59,829 nucleotides of DNA, from assembly GCA_040386275.1 (NCBI GenBank), contig JAZKFU010000003.1, positions 112,554-172,382 on the forward strand, in the 5' to 3' direction. The notes under the pieces are model-generated. The model saw only the letters and a program-made list of their open reading frames with translations, had not been told where the DNA came from and did no database searches. This document shows positions 300 to 58,723 of this stretch, one piece after another. A program made the translations under genes and the position numbers. The DNA comes from Patescibacteria group bacterium. Its GTDB lineage: Bacteria > Patescibacteriota > Minisyncoccia > Phycocordibacterales > UBA918. Positions within the stretch are counted from its first letter, which is position 1. Every line of letters starts with the position of its first letter.

Positions 300-1697
300 T
301 TAATTACGGGCGCGCGAACCTAATATATGTTTGGATAAAATTTTATAGGTATCGTAGTCAAAAGGTAGTTCAATCTCCTCTTCAGAATGTCCCTCCGGTG
401 TGTAGTTAATTATTTTTTTAATTTGCCACTGATCGACCAGATAGGCCACACCTTCTGACGCCTGTTCATCCTCAGGAATAGTCACGGGGCCTTTGTAGGG
501 CCAGGAACGCAATTTCATTTTTTTAAAAGCCGTATCAAATCGCAGATTGTAGACAGCGGCATCTTCTAACCCGATACAGGCTCCTTTACAGCGACCTAGC
601 TGAAACTGAAAGCACGCGCCTTTCCCTGACTCCAGCCCTAGTAATTTTGGACACAAGGAATGTTCTTTAATGAGCGTTTCAAGACGCGCCTTTCCCGCAC
701 TCATGGTTTTAAACACCCCGTTGATTGTTTCATCATAGGAAAAAGTATCGTTAGCTTGATACGAAAGCGTTCCTGATTTGTAACCGGCAGGAGTATCAAT
801 AACTTTGAACACCACTAAGCGCGAAGTTTTTCGGAGGCGTCGATTATATTCTGGGAGCATTTCCTTTATATATTTTGACTCTTTAAGTAACGCAGAAAGC
901 TCGCCACTGGTTACCTCATGTTCAACATACGCCACCTTAGAAGTAAGCGCGCGCTCTTTGGGGGTGGTATGTGACTGACCAAAATGAGATCGAACCCGAC
1001 TTTTTATATCAACGCTCTTGCCAATATATAACAACCTATCTTCAGCATCGTAAAAAAAATAGACACCTGGTTGATGCGGTAATGATTCAATAACTTTCTC
1101 ATCAACTGTATCAGGTAAAATATAATTTACGAGCGCGGAGGTAATTACTTCTTCAATCCGTTCACGTGTGTGGGATTGTTGTGCACTTTGCAAAAACAAT
1201 ACTAACGCTTCACAATCTGCATAGGCCCGGTGACGCGCAGTCACTACAAGTCCATGCGCTGCAATAATATTTTCTAAACTATGACTTTTTTGACGTGGAA
1301 ACAGTTGCCGTGAAATTTTCACCGTACATAATGTTTTGGCATTAAAGGTAATACCTAACCGTTTGAATTCAGTTTTAATAAACCCATAATCAAACCGTGC
1401 ATTGTGGGCTACAAAAATTGCCCCTTCAAGCAACTGTTTAATTTCTAAGGCCACCTCATCAAACGTTGGCTTATCGTGCACATCTGAATTGGAAATGCCA
1501 GTAATGGTTGTGATGAAAGGACTAATTGATACTCCAGGATTAATTAACGTTTCGTATCGATCCGTAATGACGCCGTCTTCAACGCGGATAATTCCAATTT
1601 CAATAATTTGACCATAGCGTGCATGTGAGCCGGTAGTTTCAACATCAACAAACACATAGGTATCACCAGTGAGACTTTCAACATCGCGAACAATCAT
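300..1697 (-). CDS. DEDDh 3'-5' exonuclease (DnaQ/PolIII epsilon-like) fused to a GIY-YIG UvrC/Cho-like nuclease domain
   Basis: VFVDVETTG, VAHNARFD, HRAYADC (Exo I-III); PGVY...LLYIGKS...RVRSHF (GIY-YIG); Cys cluster CFQFQLGRCKGAC. Confidence 0.9.
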   Translation of the reverse strand: MIVRDVESLTGDTYVFVDVETTGSHARYGQIIEIGIIRVEDGVITDRYETLINPGVSISPFITTITGISNSDVHDKPTFDEVALEIKQLLEGAIFVAHNARFDYGFIKTEFKRLGITFNAKTLCTVKISRQLFPRQKSHSLENIIAAHGLVVTARHRAYADCEALVLFLQSAQQSHTRERIEEVITSALVNYILPDTVDEKVIESLPHQPGVYFFYDAEDRLLYIGKSVDIKSRVRSHFGQSHTTPKERALTSKVAYVEHEVTSGELSALLKESKYIKEMLPEYNRRLRKTSRLVVFKVIDTPAGYKSGTLSYQANDTFSYDETINGVFKTMSAGKARLETLIKEHSLCPKLLGLESGKGACFQFQLGRCKGACIGLEDAAVYNLRFDTAFKKMKLRSWPYKGPVTIPEDEQASEGVAYLVDQWQIKKIINYTPEGHSEEEIELPFDYDTYKILSKHILGSRARN

Positions 1698-18075: not shown

Positions 18076-19575
18076 ATGGCAAAAAATATCAAAAACTCAG
18101 CTCCCAAAATCACCAAACGTCCACCCATTGTGGTTGTAATGGGTCATATTGACCACGGTAAATCAACGCTTTTAGACTATATTCGCAAAAGTAATGTAGT
18201 AACGGGTGAAGCGGGCGGTATTACCCAGCACCTCTCTGCCTACGTGGTTGAGCACAAAACTAAAGACGGCGCCCACGAACACATCACGTTTTTAGACACT
18301 CCAGGACACGCTGCCTTCCAAAAGATGCGCTTGCGCGGAGCTGACGTTGCCGATATTGCTGTTTTGGTAGTTTCAGCCGAAGACGGGGTAAAACCACAAA
18401 CCCTAGAAGCCTTAGAATCCATTAAAGCCGCCGGCATCCCGATGATTGTGGCGATTAATAAAATTGATAAACCAGGCGCTGATATTCCACGAACACAAGC
18501 CAGTCTGATTGAACACGAAATTTATATTGAAGGCATGGGAGGAGATATCCCGTGGGCACCGATTTCAGCCAAGGCTGGTACAGGCATTAGTGACCTCCTT
18601 GATCTCATCATTCTCGCTGCCGATGTTGCTGAACTCACCGGTGACACCAACGCTCCGGCAACGGGAACTATCATCGACGGGAAAATGGATGCCAAACGAG
18701 GCAACACCGCCACCCTTATCATTAAAAACGGAACCTTGAAGTCGGGACAGTTTGTGGTTTCTGGTCATTCCTTTGCACCCGTCCGCATTATGGAAGACTC
18801 ATATGGAAAGACTCTCAAAGAGGCTACCCTCTCGATGCCCGTTGGTATCGTTGGCTTTACGACTATCCCGAAAGCCGGGAGTGAATTTTATACTGTCAGT
18901 AGCAAAAAAGAAGCTGAGCTCGCATTACTCAACACTGAAACTCCCGAAGTCATTGCGCACAAAAAAACTAACCTGCCAACTATTCCCATTCTTATTAAGG
19001 CCGACATGCTAGGCACTATTGATGCCATTGAACACGAACTGAATAACTTTGTCTCAGACCGAATCAGTGTGCGCATTATTGATACCGGGGTGGGTGCAAT
19101 TTCAGAAAGTGACGTGCGAAACGTGAGCGCGACGCCTGACGCTATTATCGTAGGATTTAACGTAGCGGTTGAACGCGCGGCAGCTGACTTAGCCACTATC
19201 CGCGGGGTAGAAATCGATACGTTCTCTATCATTTACGAACTATCAGATTGGCTAAACAACGCCCTTAAAAACCGAACTCCGAAAAAAGAAGAACGGGTAG
19301 TGATTGGTCACGCTAAAATCATCAAACATTTTAGTACCCAGAAAAACACCCACGTATTAGGAGGACGGATTGAAGATGGCATGATGAAATTAGGCGCTCA
19401 AGTCCAAATCTTGCGTCGTGACATTGATATGGGACGAGGCGTTGTCAAAAACCTGCAACAGCAAAAATCTGACGTCAAACAAGTGGACGAAGGAGAATTT
19501 GGTATGCAAATTGATTCCCGCGTAGAAATTGCCCCCGGCGACGTACTAGAATGCTTCGAAATGGTAATTTCATAA
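18076..19575 (+). CDS. infB: translation initiation factor IF-2 (short form)
   Basis: RPPIVVVMGHIDHGKSTLLD, EAGGITQH, DTPGHAAF, NKID. Confidence 0.97.
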   Translation: MAKNIKNSAPKITKRPPIVVVMGHIDHGKSTLLDYIRKSNVVTGEAGGITQHLSAYVVEHKTKDGAHEHITFLDTPGHAAFQKMRLRGADVADIAVLVVSAEDGVKPQTLEALESIKAAGIPMIVAINKIDKPGADIPRTQASLIEHEIYIEGMGGDIPWAPISAKAGTGISDLLDLIILAADVAELTGDTNAPATGTIIDGKMDAKRGNTATLIIKNGTLKSGQFVVSGHSFAPVRIMEDSYGKTLKEATLSMPVGIVGFTTIPKAGSEFYTVSSKKEAELALLNTETPEVIAHKKTNLPTIPILIKADMLGTIDAIEHELNNFVSDRISVRIIDTGVGAISESDVRNVSATPDAIIVGFNVAVERAAADLATIRGVEIDTFSIIYELSDWLNNALKNRTPKKEERVVIGHAKIIKHFSTQKNTHVLGGRIEDGMMKLGAQVQILRRDIDMGRGVVKNLQQQKSDVKQVDEGEFGMQIDSRVEIAPGDVLECFEMVIS

Positions 19576-19577
19576 TT

Positions 19578-20006
19578 ATGGCAGCACCCTCATCATTTGA
19601 CCGCCATGACCGCGCCGCGTCTTTATTAAAAGAAGTCGTCGCCAAGTTCATCCAACTCGAAGCCAACACCAACCCGATGATTACGGTGACGCATGTAACT
19701 GTGTCTCCTGACTATCGCAAAGTAACGGTGTATGTGACGACCATCCCTGACGGACGTGAAGCTGATGCCTTAATTTTCTTAAAACGTTCAGCGAGCGAAA
19801 TGCGGGGCTACGTAAAAAAACGAACCAACCTAAAGATTATCCCCCACCTTGAATTTGCCTACGACTACGGCGAGAAGCACCGCCAACACATCGACGAGAT
19901 AGCCCGTGATATCGACGAAACCAGTCACAAAACAAGCGAAGAAGTAGTAGATGAATTATTGGATTCTGGAAAAGAATCAAATAAAGAAATAACAGACAAT
20001 CAGTAA
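19578..20006 (+). CDS. rbfA: ribosome-binding factor A
   Basis: ITVTHVTVSPD..KV.VYV, LKIIPHLEFAYD; follows infB. Confidence 0.9.
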   Translation: MAAPSSFDRHDRAASLLKEVVAKFIQLEANTNPMITVTHVTVSPDYRKVTVYVTTIPDGREADALIFLKRSASEMRGYVKKRTNLKIIPHLEFAYDYGEKHRQHIDEIARDIDETSHKTSEEVVDELLDSGKESNKEITDNQ

Positions 20007-20046
20007 ATATAAAAACCTTTCAGTTAACTGAAAGGTTTTTATATTT
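20005..20046. terminator. perfect 42-bp palindrome, bidirectional terminator
   Basis: AAATATAAAAACCTTTCAGTT|AACTGAAAGGTTTTTATATTT. Confidence 0.8.
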
Positions 20047-20172
20047 GAGACCGAGGCGGGATTCGAAACTTACAGTTTCAGTACAGGTTGTCGCTACTTT
20101 TGAAAAGTAGCTGGCAACCTTTTCGAATCCCGCCACCAAAATAAAAACACCCGAGACGGGTGTTTTTATTTT
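20044..20172 (-). repeat. tRNA-Cys trailer element (terminator, inverted T-arm copy, module B, 24-bp direct repeat of tRNA 3' end)
   Basis: TTTGAGACCGAGGCGGGATTCGAA at 20044-20067 and 20170-20193; TTCGAATCCCGCC inverted copy at 20122-20134. Confidence 0.85.
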
Positions 20173-20173
20173 G

Positions 20174-20246
20174 AGACCGAGGCGGGATTCGAACCCGCGA
20201 ATGGCGGTTTTGCAAACCGCAGCGTTAGCCCCTTCGCCACCCGGTC
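20174..20246 (-). tRNA. tRNA-Cys(GCA)
   Basis: Reverse complement GACCGGGTGGCGAAGGGGCTAACGCTGCGGTTTGCAAAACCGCCATTCGCGGGTTCGAATCCCGCCTCGGTCT folds into a cloverleaf. Confidence 0.95.
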
Positions 20247-20338
20247 AAGACCACTACTCTATCACCATTCAATGACTTTATAAACCCTAATTGTTGTGGA
20301 ATACTTATATGAAGTACTAAACTTTCATCTTTACCATC

Positions 20339-44642: not shown

Positions 44643-44845
44643 CAGAGGCAAAACAAAAATACACCCCTTAGTTAAGGGGTGTATTTTTGTTTTAGAAAGC
44701 AAAGAGTTTTGCTTTCGGCCTCTGTGATAGACGGAGTCATGTTTTTCCTCTCCCTGGAGAAAAAACAGACGAGTCGGGGTCGAGAACACTTAGTATAATT
44801 TGTACGAAGTGCAATATTATACTTAGTGATTCGTGACCACACAGA
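44643..44845 (+). repeat. tRNA-Glu trailer element (long palindrome, 24-nt bulged hairpin, module A)
   Basis: Hairpin 44694-44717; module A 44729-44838. Confidence 0.85.
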
Positions 44846-45000
44846 CACATATGCAAAGTTCGTTTAGAACTTTTCAATTTGATCCCACAAGCAACAGTAT
44901 TACTACACCGTTACGTAAAAATCAACACCTAATTAGGACCACGGCATTATACTTTGATACTCCGCCAACTACCCTTAGCAGACTTTGATATACTGGTACC

Positions 45001-50052: not shown

Positions 50053-50244
50053 CAAAATTAAAACGCCCCTAAAGGGCGTTTTAATTTTGTGCGAAATAAG
50101 TATTGTGCCTGCGCACAATACGTCGGGGCTCGAAAAGCGGAGCGATGTTTTGGCTATTCCTAATGCCAAAACCGCGAGCTGTGTCCCGCGGCACTTATGA
50201 GCGTCAGCGAATTTGTGACCGTCAGGACAAGTCCTGTACTCTAC
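50053..50244 (+). repeat. tRNA-Val trailer element (25-bp-arm palindrome, 25-nt hairpin, inverted T-arm copy, variant module A)
   Basis: Arms 50044-50068/50074-50098; hairpin 50099-50123; CGGGGCTCGAA 50124-50134. Confidence 0.85.
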
Positions 50245-56849: not shown

Positions 56850-57551
56850 TTAACTTGTTGTAGTTTGAGCTGCATTTAAAGATTTTGATTGAGTCATGAC
56901 ATTAGAAATATGTTCATGGGGCGAAATTTCAACGGTTTGACAAAGGTAAGATAATTTTCCAATTGCCATGAGCAGACGTTGCTGACTGATAACAGGAGTA
57001 CCATAGGACTTTATATTTTCTACCAGCTCATGAGCATATACTACATTTTTAATCCTCTCTGTTTTAAAAACACCTGAGCCGGTAAATACTACCAAGTTAA
57101 TAAAATTTTCCTCTACAAACGGCATTAATTTTTTTAAAGTTTCAACGTGCCCATAATTTTGCCACAACGGATTTCTTAAAATAAATTTCTTTCCGGTTAA
57201 ATACCTTGCTGTCCACTTTTCATTACTTTTACTTCCAAAAATCCAACCTGAACTGTCTTTGGTTTCTATCACAAAAATACCAAATCGTGACACTACTACA
57301 TGATCTATTTCGGTTGAGGTTGAATGGGATGATGGCAATATCAAATTATTATAAATAAAATATTCATTATGATTTAAACCTTCAGCCAATATCCTCACCA
57401 CCCTTCTTTCTGAGTCGTTTAAATTTTCAGCATAGCATCTATGTCCATGACCGGAATATATAGTACGTTTTGTAAAAAAAATATTTTTATTAGCACTTTT
57501 AACAAGTAGGTAGAGGGAAAGAATGATTATTAAACTAACAACAATATTCAT
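56850..57551 (-). CDS. NERD (nuclease-related) domain protein with N-terminal TM
   Basis: TEIDHVVVSRFGIFVIETKD.SGWIFG, RNPLWQNYGHV. Confidence 0.9.
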   Translation of the reverse strand: MNIVVSLIIILSLYLLVKSANKNIFFTKRTIYSGHGHRCYAENLNDSERRVVRILAEGLNHNEYFIYNNLILPSSHSTSTEIDHVVVSRFGIFVIETKDSSGWIFGSKSNEKWTARYLTGKKFILRNPLWQNYGHVETLKKLMPFVEENFINLVVFTGSGVFKTERIKNVVYAHELVENIKSYGTPVISQQRLLMAIGKLSYLCQTVEISPHEHISNVMTQSKSLNAAQTTTS

Positions 57552-57603
57552 ATATTTAATATGATAGCAGTGGATGGAGATGATCTGGTGTATTTGTGTA
57601 CAC

Positions 57604-57937
57604 GGTCGGGTGCTTGAGGGCAGGCTCGGTCACGAGTTACTAAGTATATTTGTGCATTGCGTGCAAATTCTACTAGGTGTTCTCGACCCGAGAAACAGTG
57701 CCTAAACACTGTTTCTCCCGCTGTTTCGGCTCTAGGAAGAGCCAAAACATGCCTGTGCCTTTCGTTTCTTACAGAAACTGTATACCTTGTCGCTACTTTT
57801 ACATTTCATTCCAAAGTAGCTGGCAAGGTCTTGCAGAGTGACATTGGGTCACTCTTCACCCGCACGTAACTGACATTGGTCAGTTGCTCCCCAAGCACCG
57901 GGTACAGAAATAGCCCCTTGCGGGGCTTTCTGTACGC
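57604..57937 (-). repeat. tRNA-Phe trailer element containing the 25-nt hairpin, module B and module A plus a distal direct copy of the tRNA 3' end
   Basis: Hairpin 57864-57888; module B 57761-57830; module A 57628-57760; GGTGCTTGAGGGCAGGCTC (57609-57627) versus tRNA GGTGCTTGGGGGCGGGCTC (17/19). Confidence 0.88.
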
Positions 57938-58521: not shown

Positions 58522-58704
58522 CATTGATGCAAACTAATAAACACTCTTCAAAAAGAAGAGTGTTTATTAGTTTAGCAAGCAACCTGCGTTGCTTGCGGGC
58601 ATCAATGTGAGACGGAGTCATGTTTTCTCCTCCTTCCTAGAGGAGGAAACAGACGAGTCCGGTGAGGAAGTTCTTATGAGTGTCAGCGAATTAGAAACTT
58701 GACC
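58522..58704 (+). repeat. tRNA-Arg trailer element (long palindrome, 25-nt hairpin, module A variant)
   Basis: Hairpin 58574-58598; AGACGGAGTCATGT at 58610; TTATGAGTGTCAGCGAATT shared with the Val element. Confidence 0.85.
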
Positions 58705-58723
58705 CCAAATTCGAATGTTCTAG

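Follow-up and report, generated by a model that had tools for sequence, protein, structure and literature searches.

A compact structured element, proposed to be an insertion, in the 3' flank of tRNA-Cys in a Patescibacteria group bacterium

The tRNA-Cys locus and its repeats

In the window (the whole stretch of 59,829 nucleotides that was analysed), the gene for tRNA-Cys(GCA) is located on the minus strand at 20173/4-20246, as called by ARAGORN and by Rfam (RF00005 tRNA, 57.7 bits), and its 3' flank, on the side of the convergent rbfA gene (ORF 19551-20006; PF02033), carries a non-coding insert of 126 bp. Despite this insert the tRNA gene stays intact, a complete gene being called by both programs. 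The parts of the locus, from the tRNA towards rbfA, are as follows:

20173-20246, minus strand: tRNA-Cys(GCA), intact, with discriminator U73 followed by C and CCA not encoded (ARAGORN, Rfam)
20170-20193, minus strand: proximal copy of the direct repeat (S_L), 24 nt, from T-loop position 54 through the tRNA 3' end plus 3 nt
20137-20173, unstranded: inner hairpin ('terminator 2'), an inverted repeat with a 17-bp stem, a GC core and an A tract plus T tract
20135-20137, unstranded: 3-nt linker, GGT on the tRNA-sense strand and ACC on the plus strand, which with A20138 gives 'ACCA'
20121-20134, minus strand: inverted copy of the T loop and of the 3' strand of the T stem ('anti-T'), reading GGCGGGATTCGAA(A) on the tRNA-sense strand; from inverted repeats
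20068-20121, minus strand: module B cassette, 54 nt, from covariation and a covariance-model match of 100.2 bits at 20055-20134
20085-20120, minus strand: P2 of the Cys module B, AGGTTG-[CCA/GA internal loop]-GCTACTTTT c AAAAGTAGC-CAACCT
20080-20084, minus strand: joiner GTACT of the Cys module B
20065-20079, minus strand: P3 of the Cys module B, GAAACT-GTA-AGTTTC, which borrows the TTC of the distal repeat
20044-20067, minus strand: distal copy of the direct repeat (S_R), 24 nt, a pseudo 3' end of tRNA-Cys
20005-20046, unstranded: outer hairpin ('terminator 1'), an inverted repeat of 21 bp, perfectly palindromic and starting from the stop codon of rbfA

The exact 24-bp duplication of the tRNA 3' end that the preliminary description had reported, with its two copies 126 bp apart and enclosing module B, is borne out by repeat searches and shuffles: TTTGAGACCGAGGCGGGATTCGAA has two exact occurrences (20044-20067 and 20170-20193, spacing 126 bp), the expected count of the 24-mer being 0 in 100 dinucleotide-preserving shuffles even when 3 mismatches are allowed, and the direct repeat can be extended to 31 nt at 90% identity. 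S_L belongs to the working tRNA-Cys, while S_R repeats, with no mismatch, the final 21 nt of the tRNA together with 3 nt of the trailer; the att-like character attributed to the repeat also holds, the duplication running from the T loop to 3 nt past the gene as in attachment-site duplication. The segment GGCGGGATTCGAA occurs three times in the window (twice on the plus strand and once on the minus strand, at 20122-20134) against 0.03 expected, and the inverted arms at 20055-20068 and 20121-20134 are 14 nt long, 100% complementary and 52 nt apart, anti-T being predicted to pair with either copy of the direct repeat.

The plus strand reads TTCGAATCCCGCC, then ACCA (20135-20138), then the 17-bp hairpin (20137-20153/20157-20173) and a T run, so that the inverted T-arm copy followed by ACCA and a hairpin with a T run is present in the sequence as first described. 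On the tRNA-sense strand the order is tRNA-Cys, hairpin (20173-20137), GGT, anti-T (20134-20121), module B (20121-20068), S_R (20067-20044) and palindrome (20046-20005). By its sequence, terminator 2 looks like a bidirectional intrinsic terminator; terminator 1 is common to the element side of tRNA-Cys and to the convergent rbfA. The unitigs of two metagenome runs are identical to positions 20017-20463, with zero differences, and because they reproduce this region exactly the Cys locus is not misassembled. The organism is present in the watershed metagenomes X1 and X2.

An HNH_3 endonuclease gene (20339-20821, plus strand) lies between tRNA-Cys and tRNA-Leu(TAA), with a 13-nt overlap with the start of the latter; the same gene is found in the equivalent position in the related loci L324 and L326, and a similar ORF follows tRNA-Cys in L073. 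All nine tRNA genes of the window have the discriminator and a single C (CC in tRNA-Phe), and since none of them encodes CCA their 3' ends need post-transcriptional completion.

Fold and strand polarity of module B

On the tRNA-sense strand, module B is modelled as a three-way junction (P1/P2/P3), in which P1 is the inverted arm paired with the distal repeat, P2 is NNN-TTG-[CCA/GA internal loop]-GCT, a variable hairpin and AGC-CAA-N'N'N', and P3 is GAA-NNN-GTA-N'N'N'-TTC, its last three pairs being formed with the TTC of the distal repeat. In an alignment of 28 sequences, 93.3% of the cells are paired, compared to 79.6% in shuffles, none of 500 shuffles reaching the observed value; changes on both sides are seen in 20 of the 30 pairs, and the covariation score is 0.387, against 0.133 in shuffles and at most 0.10 in slid controls. 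Conserved unpaired nucleotides are found alongside this covariation. The covariation of P1 is partly trivial, because each of its arms is itself a copy of the target. P2 and P3 lie inside the cassette: the closing triplet of P2 covaries (AGG/CCT 54, ACC/GGT 14, CCG/CGG 6, CTG/CGG 5 and others), and in 70 of 92 copies every position of P3 is paired, four kinds of Watson-Crick pair occurring at most of its positions.

A covariance model (R1) built from the same alignment and searched against 872 kb gave 33 matches, 29 of them located 0-300 nt behind a tRNA of the same orientation, where 4.6% would be expected. The highest-scoring match is the Cys copy (100.2 bits, 20055-20134), with all junction pairs formed and with the CCA/GA loop, the GTAC joiner and the GTA loop all present.

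In 34 of 39 elements the more stable fold is that of the tRNA-sense strand and not that of its complement (Wilcoxon p = 3e-7), with a mean difference of -6.9 kcal/mol, and the 39 elements have 118 G.U pairs on the sense strand against 64 on the complement; likewise, the base wobbles of P2 on the sense strand are 8 G.T and 0 A.C. Because sense-strand folds are so favoured, the single-stranded form under selection would have the polarity of the tRNA. In the Cys copy, which contains no wobble pair, the two strands are about equal in folding. Two mutually exclusive pairings are predicted for the anti-T of this copy, one with the distal repeat and the other with the tRNA's own 3' half.

As to transcription, a scan of 19800-21300 found no promoter-like site in the element; the same promoter/terminator scan missed obvious hairpins, terminator 2 included, because their stems include the T tract. 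Of the sequencing runs matched to the locus, DNA runs alone contain it, and no transcript was seen; the one RNA-labelled run covers parts of the tRNA only, and contigs from RNA-labelled libraries cover a related B cassette at low depth and with no strand information.

The family in the window, in related loci and in metagenomes

Seven of the nine tRNA trailers in the window are built on a common plan, which in its 5' part comprises a terminator-like hairpin, an antisense segment of the acceptor 3' strand and a side hairpin of about 23 nt, and in its 3' part an antisense segment of the T arm (or of the tRNA end plus trailer), a structured cassette and, in several cases, a sense copy of the tRNA 3' end. 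Two types of cassette are found: 'B' behind tRNA-Cys, tRNA-Ser and tRNA-Phe, and 'A' behind tRNA-Leu(TAA), tRNA-Glu, tRNA-Val, tRNA-Arg and tRNA-Phe. The Cys copy has no acceptor antisense segment, no side hairpin and no acceptor-like helix whatever, and it is indeed, as had been suggested, a minimal version of the element found behind other tRNAs of the window. The statement that it is the only tRNA trailer without the hairpin stands as far as the element-bearing trailers of the window are concerned, but not for all trailers, since tRNA-Lys and tRNA-Leu(TAG) are element-free; in relatives, further copies without the side hairpin occur in L001, L004, L056 and L077. Some details vary within the window: the inverted arm of the Ser element agrees with the distal repeat, and not with the tRNA, at two positions, and in the Arg and Glu elements the antisense segment lies over the end of the tRNA and the trailer, and not over the T arm. 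The distal repeat is decayed in several copies though the tRNA is intact.

The A-type elements are located as follows:

20894-21110: behind tRNA-Leu(TAA)
44644-44870: behind tRNA-Glu
50054-50240: behind tRNA-Val
57560-57760, minus strand: behind tRNA-Phe
58523-58720: behind tRNA-Arg

Their cassette follows the pattern A-NNN-GGA-hairpin-GA-N'N'N'-GGGGTCG-long hairpin-GTGACC, the triplets NNN/N'N'N' covarying across genomes (GAC/GTC, GCC/GGC, GGC/GCC, GTC/GAC), and it has no match in Rfam; hammerhead, hairpin and twister ribozymes were compared to it by eye and rejected, their core nucleotides not fitting, in agreement with Rfam. A genome-specific hairpin is common to the three long-form A copies of the window, and the A-type elements have the greatest folding advantage of the sense strand. 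The trailer of tRNA-Phe (57754-57937, minus strand) is composite, with an antisense acceptor segment, a side hairpin, a GTGA-hairpin-GCAAGA unit, module B and then module A in tandem; just downstream of the Phe element a NERD nuclease-related protein is encoded (56850-57551, minus strand). Elsewhere in the window, an RNase_T exonuclease fused to a GIY-YIG domain is encoded at 300-1697 (minus strand), and four consecutive small genes at 25149-26894 (minus strand) each have a T4SS_pilin domain.

The IF2 of the window is 84% identical to that of L001 and 74% to that of L002, which places it among the Paceibacteria (Kaiserbacteria/Nomurabacteria-like Patescibacteria). A survey of the window and 80 related loci covered 266 tRNAs, 255 of them with enough downstream sequence: an inverted 10-mer or longer of the tRNA's own 3' end lies within 450 nt downstream in 56 of the 255, and a direct 12-mer or longer, 70-320 nt downstream and outside other tRNAs, in 41. 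In this set the extra copies of at least 14 nt are all direct and all 70-720 nt downstream. Each inverted arm copies the tRNA beside it and differs from target to target; the compact architecture of 90-320 nt is repeated at dozens of tRNAs, with duplications from 17 to more than 45 nt, the direct repeat taking in the whole terminator in L062, L072, L037 and L042, and tandem arrays occur in L019, L072 and L329. In tRNA contexts the spacing between side hairpin and cassette is roughly constant (13-14 nt), and some elements (L060, L066) have no terminator between the tRNA and the anti segment. The loop of the side hairpin is often G-rich (CTGGGAG, CGGGG or TGGGA; L203, L206, L218, L221, L223, L231 and others).

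A pattern scan found module B in at least 120 metagenome contigs, downstream of at least 22 tRNA species, and among the module B matches listed the continuation TAC-N7-GTA is present in 97 of 123; the metagenome depth of the module is 5-30 times that of its flanks. An identical cassette of 59 nt is shared by a tRNA-Ser(GCT) and a tRNA-Leu(TAG) with unrelated side hairpins, arms and flanks (L211, L202). With gathering as well as permissive thresholds, Rfam 15 gave only tRNAs, rRNAs and generic hairpins for the window and 13 metagenome loci; gathering scores were reached by tRNAs alone, generic miRNA-type hairpins being added at E up to 10, and no described RNA family of that release (ribozymes, tmRNA, Y-RNA-like RNAs, riboswitches and others) matches the element; nor was a description of such tRNA-trailing elements found in full-text searches of the literature. 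Apparently, this widespread family of folded tRNA-trailing elements is undescribed. Viral contigs (IMG/VR) contained no genuine copy: the side-hairpin motif gave one chance match, in a coding region, and the module B pattern only random matches, none of which continues TAC-N7-GTA.

Orthologous rbfA-tRNA-Cys loci were reached via RbfA homologues, an exact-sequence look-up of the window RbfA having given no match, and structures homologous to the Cys element were found at other Cys loci, namely L322, L324, L326, L329, L330, L004 and L331. The comparison to the window, where 'flanks' stands for distal repeat, inverted arm and inner terminator taken together, is as follows:

Window: the reference; cassette B; plus-strand linker ACC
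L322: RbfA 99%, flanks 96-97%; same element, cassette 100% identical; linker ACC
L329: RbfA 92%, flanks 93-96%; cassette B' (56% identical); linker ACC
L330: RbfA 89%, flanks 93-96%; B variant (64%); linker ATC
L326: RbfA 92%, flanks 89-90%; B variant (85%); linker TTGTC
L324: RbfA 92%, flanks 89-93%; cassette B' (57%); linker TTGTC

Across these five loci the terminator 2 block is 89-97% identical, and S_R is decaying in L326 (2-3 mismatches). Over the orthologous loci the flanks are 89-97% identical, whereas the cassettes that differ are only 56-85% identical, B' differing from B in P2. Judging by these alignments the cassette is exchangeable, the orthologues keeping both repeats, anti-T and the inner terminator and yet differing in their cassettes. 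B' is found with both ACC and TTGTC linkers; because cassette type does not track linker type, the cassette between the inverted TTCGAA halves has been exchanged independently of its flanks. Behind the inverted T-arm, ACC is shared by the window, L322 and L329 alone, L330 having ATC there and L324 and L326 having TTGTC (RbfA 89-92%); other minimal copies have TGGGGC, TAGGCC or AAGTAA at the position of ACCA, and NCCA is absent in L001, L004 and L019. The 'AC' of ACCA is the reverse complement of a GT linker common to the family, and the remainder is one G plus the A tract of the terminator.

Close relatives differ in whether an orthologous tRNA has the element and in the type of its cassette. 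With respect to rbfA, the gene for tRNA-Cys has the flipped orientation in L323 (no element), L331 (B element) and L332 (full A-type element), and the element-free tRNA-Cys genes, in L001, L002 and L323, are all in flipped orientation. As a side observation, the gene is flipped in L323, L331, L332 and L001-L003 relative to the window, L322, L324, L326, L330, L004, L005 and L010, and such flips occur among close relatives (RbfA 85-93% identical); in L328 a tRNA-Leu(TAG)/tRNA-Lys pair stands beside rbfA in place of tRNA-Cys, and the rbfA-tRNA-Cys region is a hot spot of small inversions and rearrangements.

Mobility, host function and known systems

The interpretation that we tentatively prefer is that the Cys element would be a non-autonomous modular insertion in the 3' flank of tRNA-Cys, a minimal copy of a Paceibacteria family, moved in trans via a folded single-stranded intermediate of sense polarity. 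What the sequences show is the repeats, the fold with its covariation, the spread of the family over many targets, the exchange of cassettes at the orthologous locus, the strand bias and the lack of coding capacity; how integration takes place, what the intermediate is and which enzyme acts we infer in the following terms. The family would target the T-loop-to-3'-end segment of tRNA genes; the 126-bp inserted unit would consist of the inner terminator, the 3-nt linker, the inverted T-arm copy and the 54-nt B cassette, bounded by two tRNA 3' segments, one of which would complete the working tRNA, the other being a pseudo end. On the sense strand, the inverted arm and the distal repeat would form P1, closing a three-way junction with the cassette hairpins P2 and P3, or, alternatively, the inverted arm may reach over the terminator and pair with the 3' half of the tRNA itself. 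Integration would have come about by recombination within the T-loop-to-3'-end segment and have left the duplication as its footprint, and the cassette between the inverted TTCGAA T-loop halves would be the exchangeable unit, moved in trans by an enzyme encoded elsewhere; the intermediate, folded, single-stranded and of sense polarity, may be either ssDNA or an RNA read through from the tRNA promoter. A folded single-stranded intermediate is suggested because a 126-bp double-stranded circle is physically implausible and because the fold is strand-specific; read-through RNA may be scarce, given the terminator-like hairpin ahead of the element.

Classical integrases that target tRNA genes do not account for the inverted copy, and no recombinase/integrase, transposase, reverse-transcriptase or HUH domain was found in the 50 ORFs scanned in the 60-kb window, nor an autonomous version of the element in any fetched locus. 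Metagenome contigs aligned to the Cys locus contained no empty site, same-orientation or other, and no circle, excised form or excision product. As to the point of crossover, the Ser arm, which matches the distal repeat, would fit better with a self-contained hairpin unit or a crossover at the extreme 3' end than with one in the T loop, and the Arg and Glu antisense segments over the tRNA end plus trailer complicate a simple T-loop crossover. Larger copies with cargo genes show the same repeat signature as the compact elements: an insert behind tRNA-Gly (L076, 7759-8090), with a small ORF resembling by eye a GIY-YIG nuclease, and one behind tRNA-Trp (L078, 279-1020), with a 229-aa gene resembling by eye an Asp/Glu racemase, are both bounded by direct repeats of the tRNA 3' end.

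The main rival, which we consider unlikely, is that the element is a cis-acting RNA of the host that controls or assists tRNA maturation and is not itself mobile: in a read-through transcript the 'anti' segment would trap the 3' half of the tRNA, the decoy S_R would release it, and the apical cassette would be a folding, processing or ligand-sensing module. Such a function would account for the sense-specific folding with its G.U bias, for the conserved unpaired nucleotides that accompany the covariation, for the two mutually exclusive pairings of the inverted arm and for the near-constant distance of 13-14 nt between side hairpin and cassette, and it is consistent with the elements of L060 and L066, in which no terminator separates the tRNA from the anti segment, and with the low-depth, strandless coverage of a B cassette in contigs from RNA-labelled libraries. 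It is harder to reconcile with the position of most copies, that of Cys included, after a strong terminator-like hairpin, with a patchy distribution in which presence and cassette type vary between orthologous tRNAs and some tRNAs have none, with the decay of the distal repeat beside intact tRNAs, and with the occurrence of the module away from tRNAs, beside duplicated 5' ends of protein genes.

A further proposal, decidedly unlikely in our judgement, is that the inverted tRNA copy is a true guide, and the family a guide-directed mobile system of CPR bacteria acting via RNA or single-stranded DNA. Full-length copies would then have two guide segments around the side hairpin, at a fixed distance of 13-14 nt from the cassette; non-coding cassettes would be placed at the T loop of the guide-matched tRNA gene, the guide being re-templated from each new target, and the Cys copy, having a single guide arm and a single cassette, would represent the minimum that still works.

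That the element is an inert scar, left by internal deletion of a larger integrase-bearing island or prophage once resident in tRNA-Cys, is very unlikely: a direct repeat of this extent, from the T loop to the 3' end, is what integration into tRNA genes classically leaves, and larger inserts with this signature do exist (L076, L078), but a scar leaves unexplained a compact plan of 90-320 nt with conserved cassettes that recurs behind dozens of tRNAs and in 120 or more metagenome contigs, the covariation-preserving selection on cassette structure, and the exchange of cassettes at the rbfA-tRNA-Cys locus itself. Hardly credible is the suggestion of the preliminary description that an antisense (plus-strand) transcript could be a CCA-ended tRNA mimic; its end would be a 13-14-bp minihelix followed by ACCA. 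Although the Cys plus strand does fold into a 14-bp helix with a single-stranded ACCA (dG -44.6 kcal/mol, z = -8.5) and a hairpin with a T run follows, the orthologous locus reads ATCA or TTGTCA, other minimal copies also differ, the structure favours the tRNA-sense strand family-wide (34 of 39 elements; 8 G.T and 0 A.C wobbles in P2) and the scan found no promoter-like site. The value of the Cys finding lies in the corrected reading, in which the insertion footprint is real and the CCA-ended antisense tRNA mimic is not supported.

Elements that integrate into tRNA genes, such as tyrosine-integrase islands and prophages, duplicate the 3' part of the tRNA as attL and attR, and CIMEs (cis-mobilizable elements) are their gene-less derivatives; the present elements resemble both in the T-loop-to-3'-end repeat, the intact tRNA, the pseudo 3' end and tandem accretion, but the Cys insert is only 126 bp long and no integrase was found in the window. 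Moreover, the target is present in them in inverted form as well, beside a structured cassette that is conserved; neither is known as a feature of att sites. With REP/BIME/REPIN, BOX, ERIC, Correia and MITE-like repeats they share being short, non-coding, multi-copy and intergenic, with interchangeable stem-loops and a position beside terminators; unlike these, their arms copy the 3' end of the neighbouring tRNA instead of being element-specific terminal repeats, the duplication is long, and they are tied to one position of tRNA genes. A MITE was rejected, the arms being target-matched and not element-specific, the duplication of 17 to more than 45 nt not being short, and no parent element having been found.

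The strand-specific fold, the rebuilding of a target-like duplex and the cassette-like exchange recall integron attC sites and the attP hairpin of CTX phage (XerCD), but here the target is a tRNA gene, an integron platform is lacking and a part played by IntI or Xer would be conjecture. In element-encoded guides (IS110 bridge RNA, TnpB/IscB omega RNA, group I/II introns) an internal segment is likewise complementary to the flanking target, and the full-length copies carry two such segments around a hairpin at a fixed distance from a structured scaffold; the differences are that no recombinase or nuclease gene in the window is adjacent, that both segments pair with the same target strand, that any intron is far larger than the element and that nothing is found in Rfam. 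Finally, the acceptor-stem plus T-stem look-alike beside the 3' end of a gene, seen in full-length copies, resembles the t-elements of plant mitochondria and mascRNA, except that an extended helix and cassette replace the T loop and that the Cys copy has no acceptor-like helix. Because the defining tests of each named family fail, the element is filed as a non-autonomous insertion element outside any of them.

CPR genomes are otherwise poor in recognised mobile DNA. If the preferred interpretation, a modular insertion moved in trans, is true, CPR bacteria carry a large family of tiny structured tRNA-homing cassettes, each copy of which carries sense and antisense versions of its own target; it would also be a case of natural target-matched insertion with no enzyme gene nearby, and would prompt a search for a trans-acting protein. 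In practical terms, the elements break metagenome assemblies at tRNA loci, their pseudo 3' ends can mislead the annotation of tRNAs and att sites, and local inversions by which the tRNA genes of close relatives differ coincide with them.

Some further observations concern individual copies. In L018, L020, L040, L004 (Leu), L077 and L066 CA comes after the pseudo 3' end and makes it a complete NCCA, though the tRNA gene has no CCA; an origin of the distal repeat from mature tRNA was considered and rejected, CA being present in 6 of about 28 repeats that stop at the tRNA end, a weak signal absent in the metagenome set. A 'B-long' form, composed of GTGAGAA-hairpin-CGCAAGA plus module B, with the side hairpin 5 nt (GCAAG) upstream of the cassette, is found away from tRNA 3' ends; examples are:

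L204, 3100-3560: B-long copy
L236, 800-1250: B-long copy
L225, about 8090, minus strand: B-long copy

These copies adjoin a duplicated, diverged 5' end of the downstream gene, as seen for msrA (MQNYKKAVLAGGCFW, then the full gene MYKKIVLAGGCFWG...) and for rnhB (...GVDEAG, then the full gene), and in one example the 5' part of a tRNA-Lys stands ahead of a complete tRNA-Lys. The P3 of the B-long form is CTCCT/AGGAG, which in the modelled fold would mask a Shine-Dalgarno-like sequence, and with respect to neighbouring ORFs the non-tRNA copies have a modest orientation bias, 23 against 10 being upstream.
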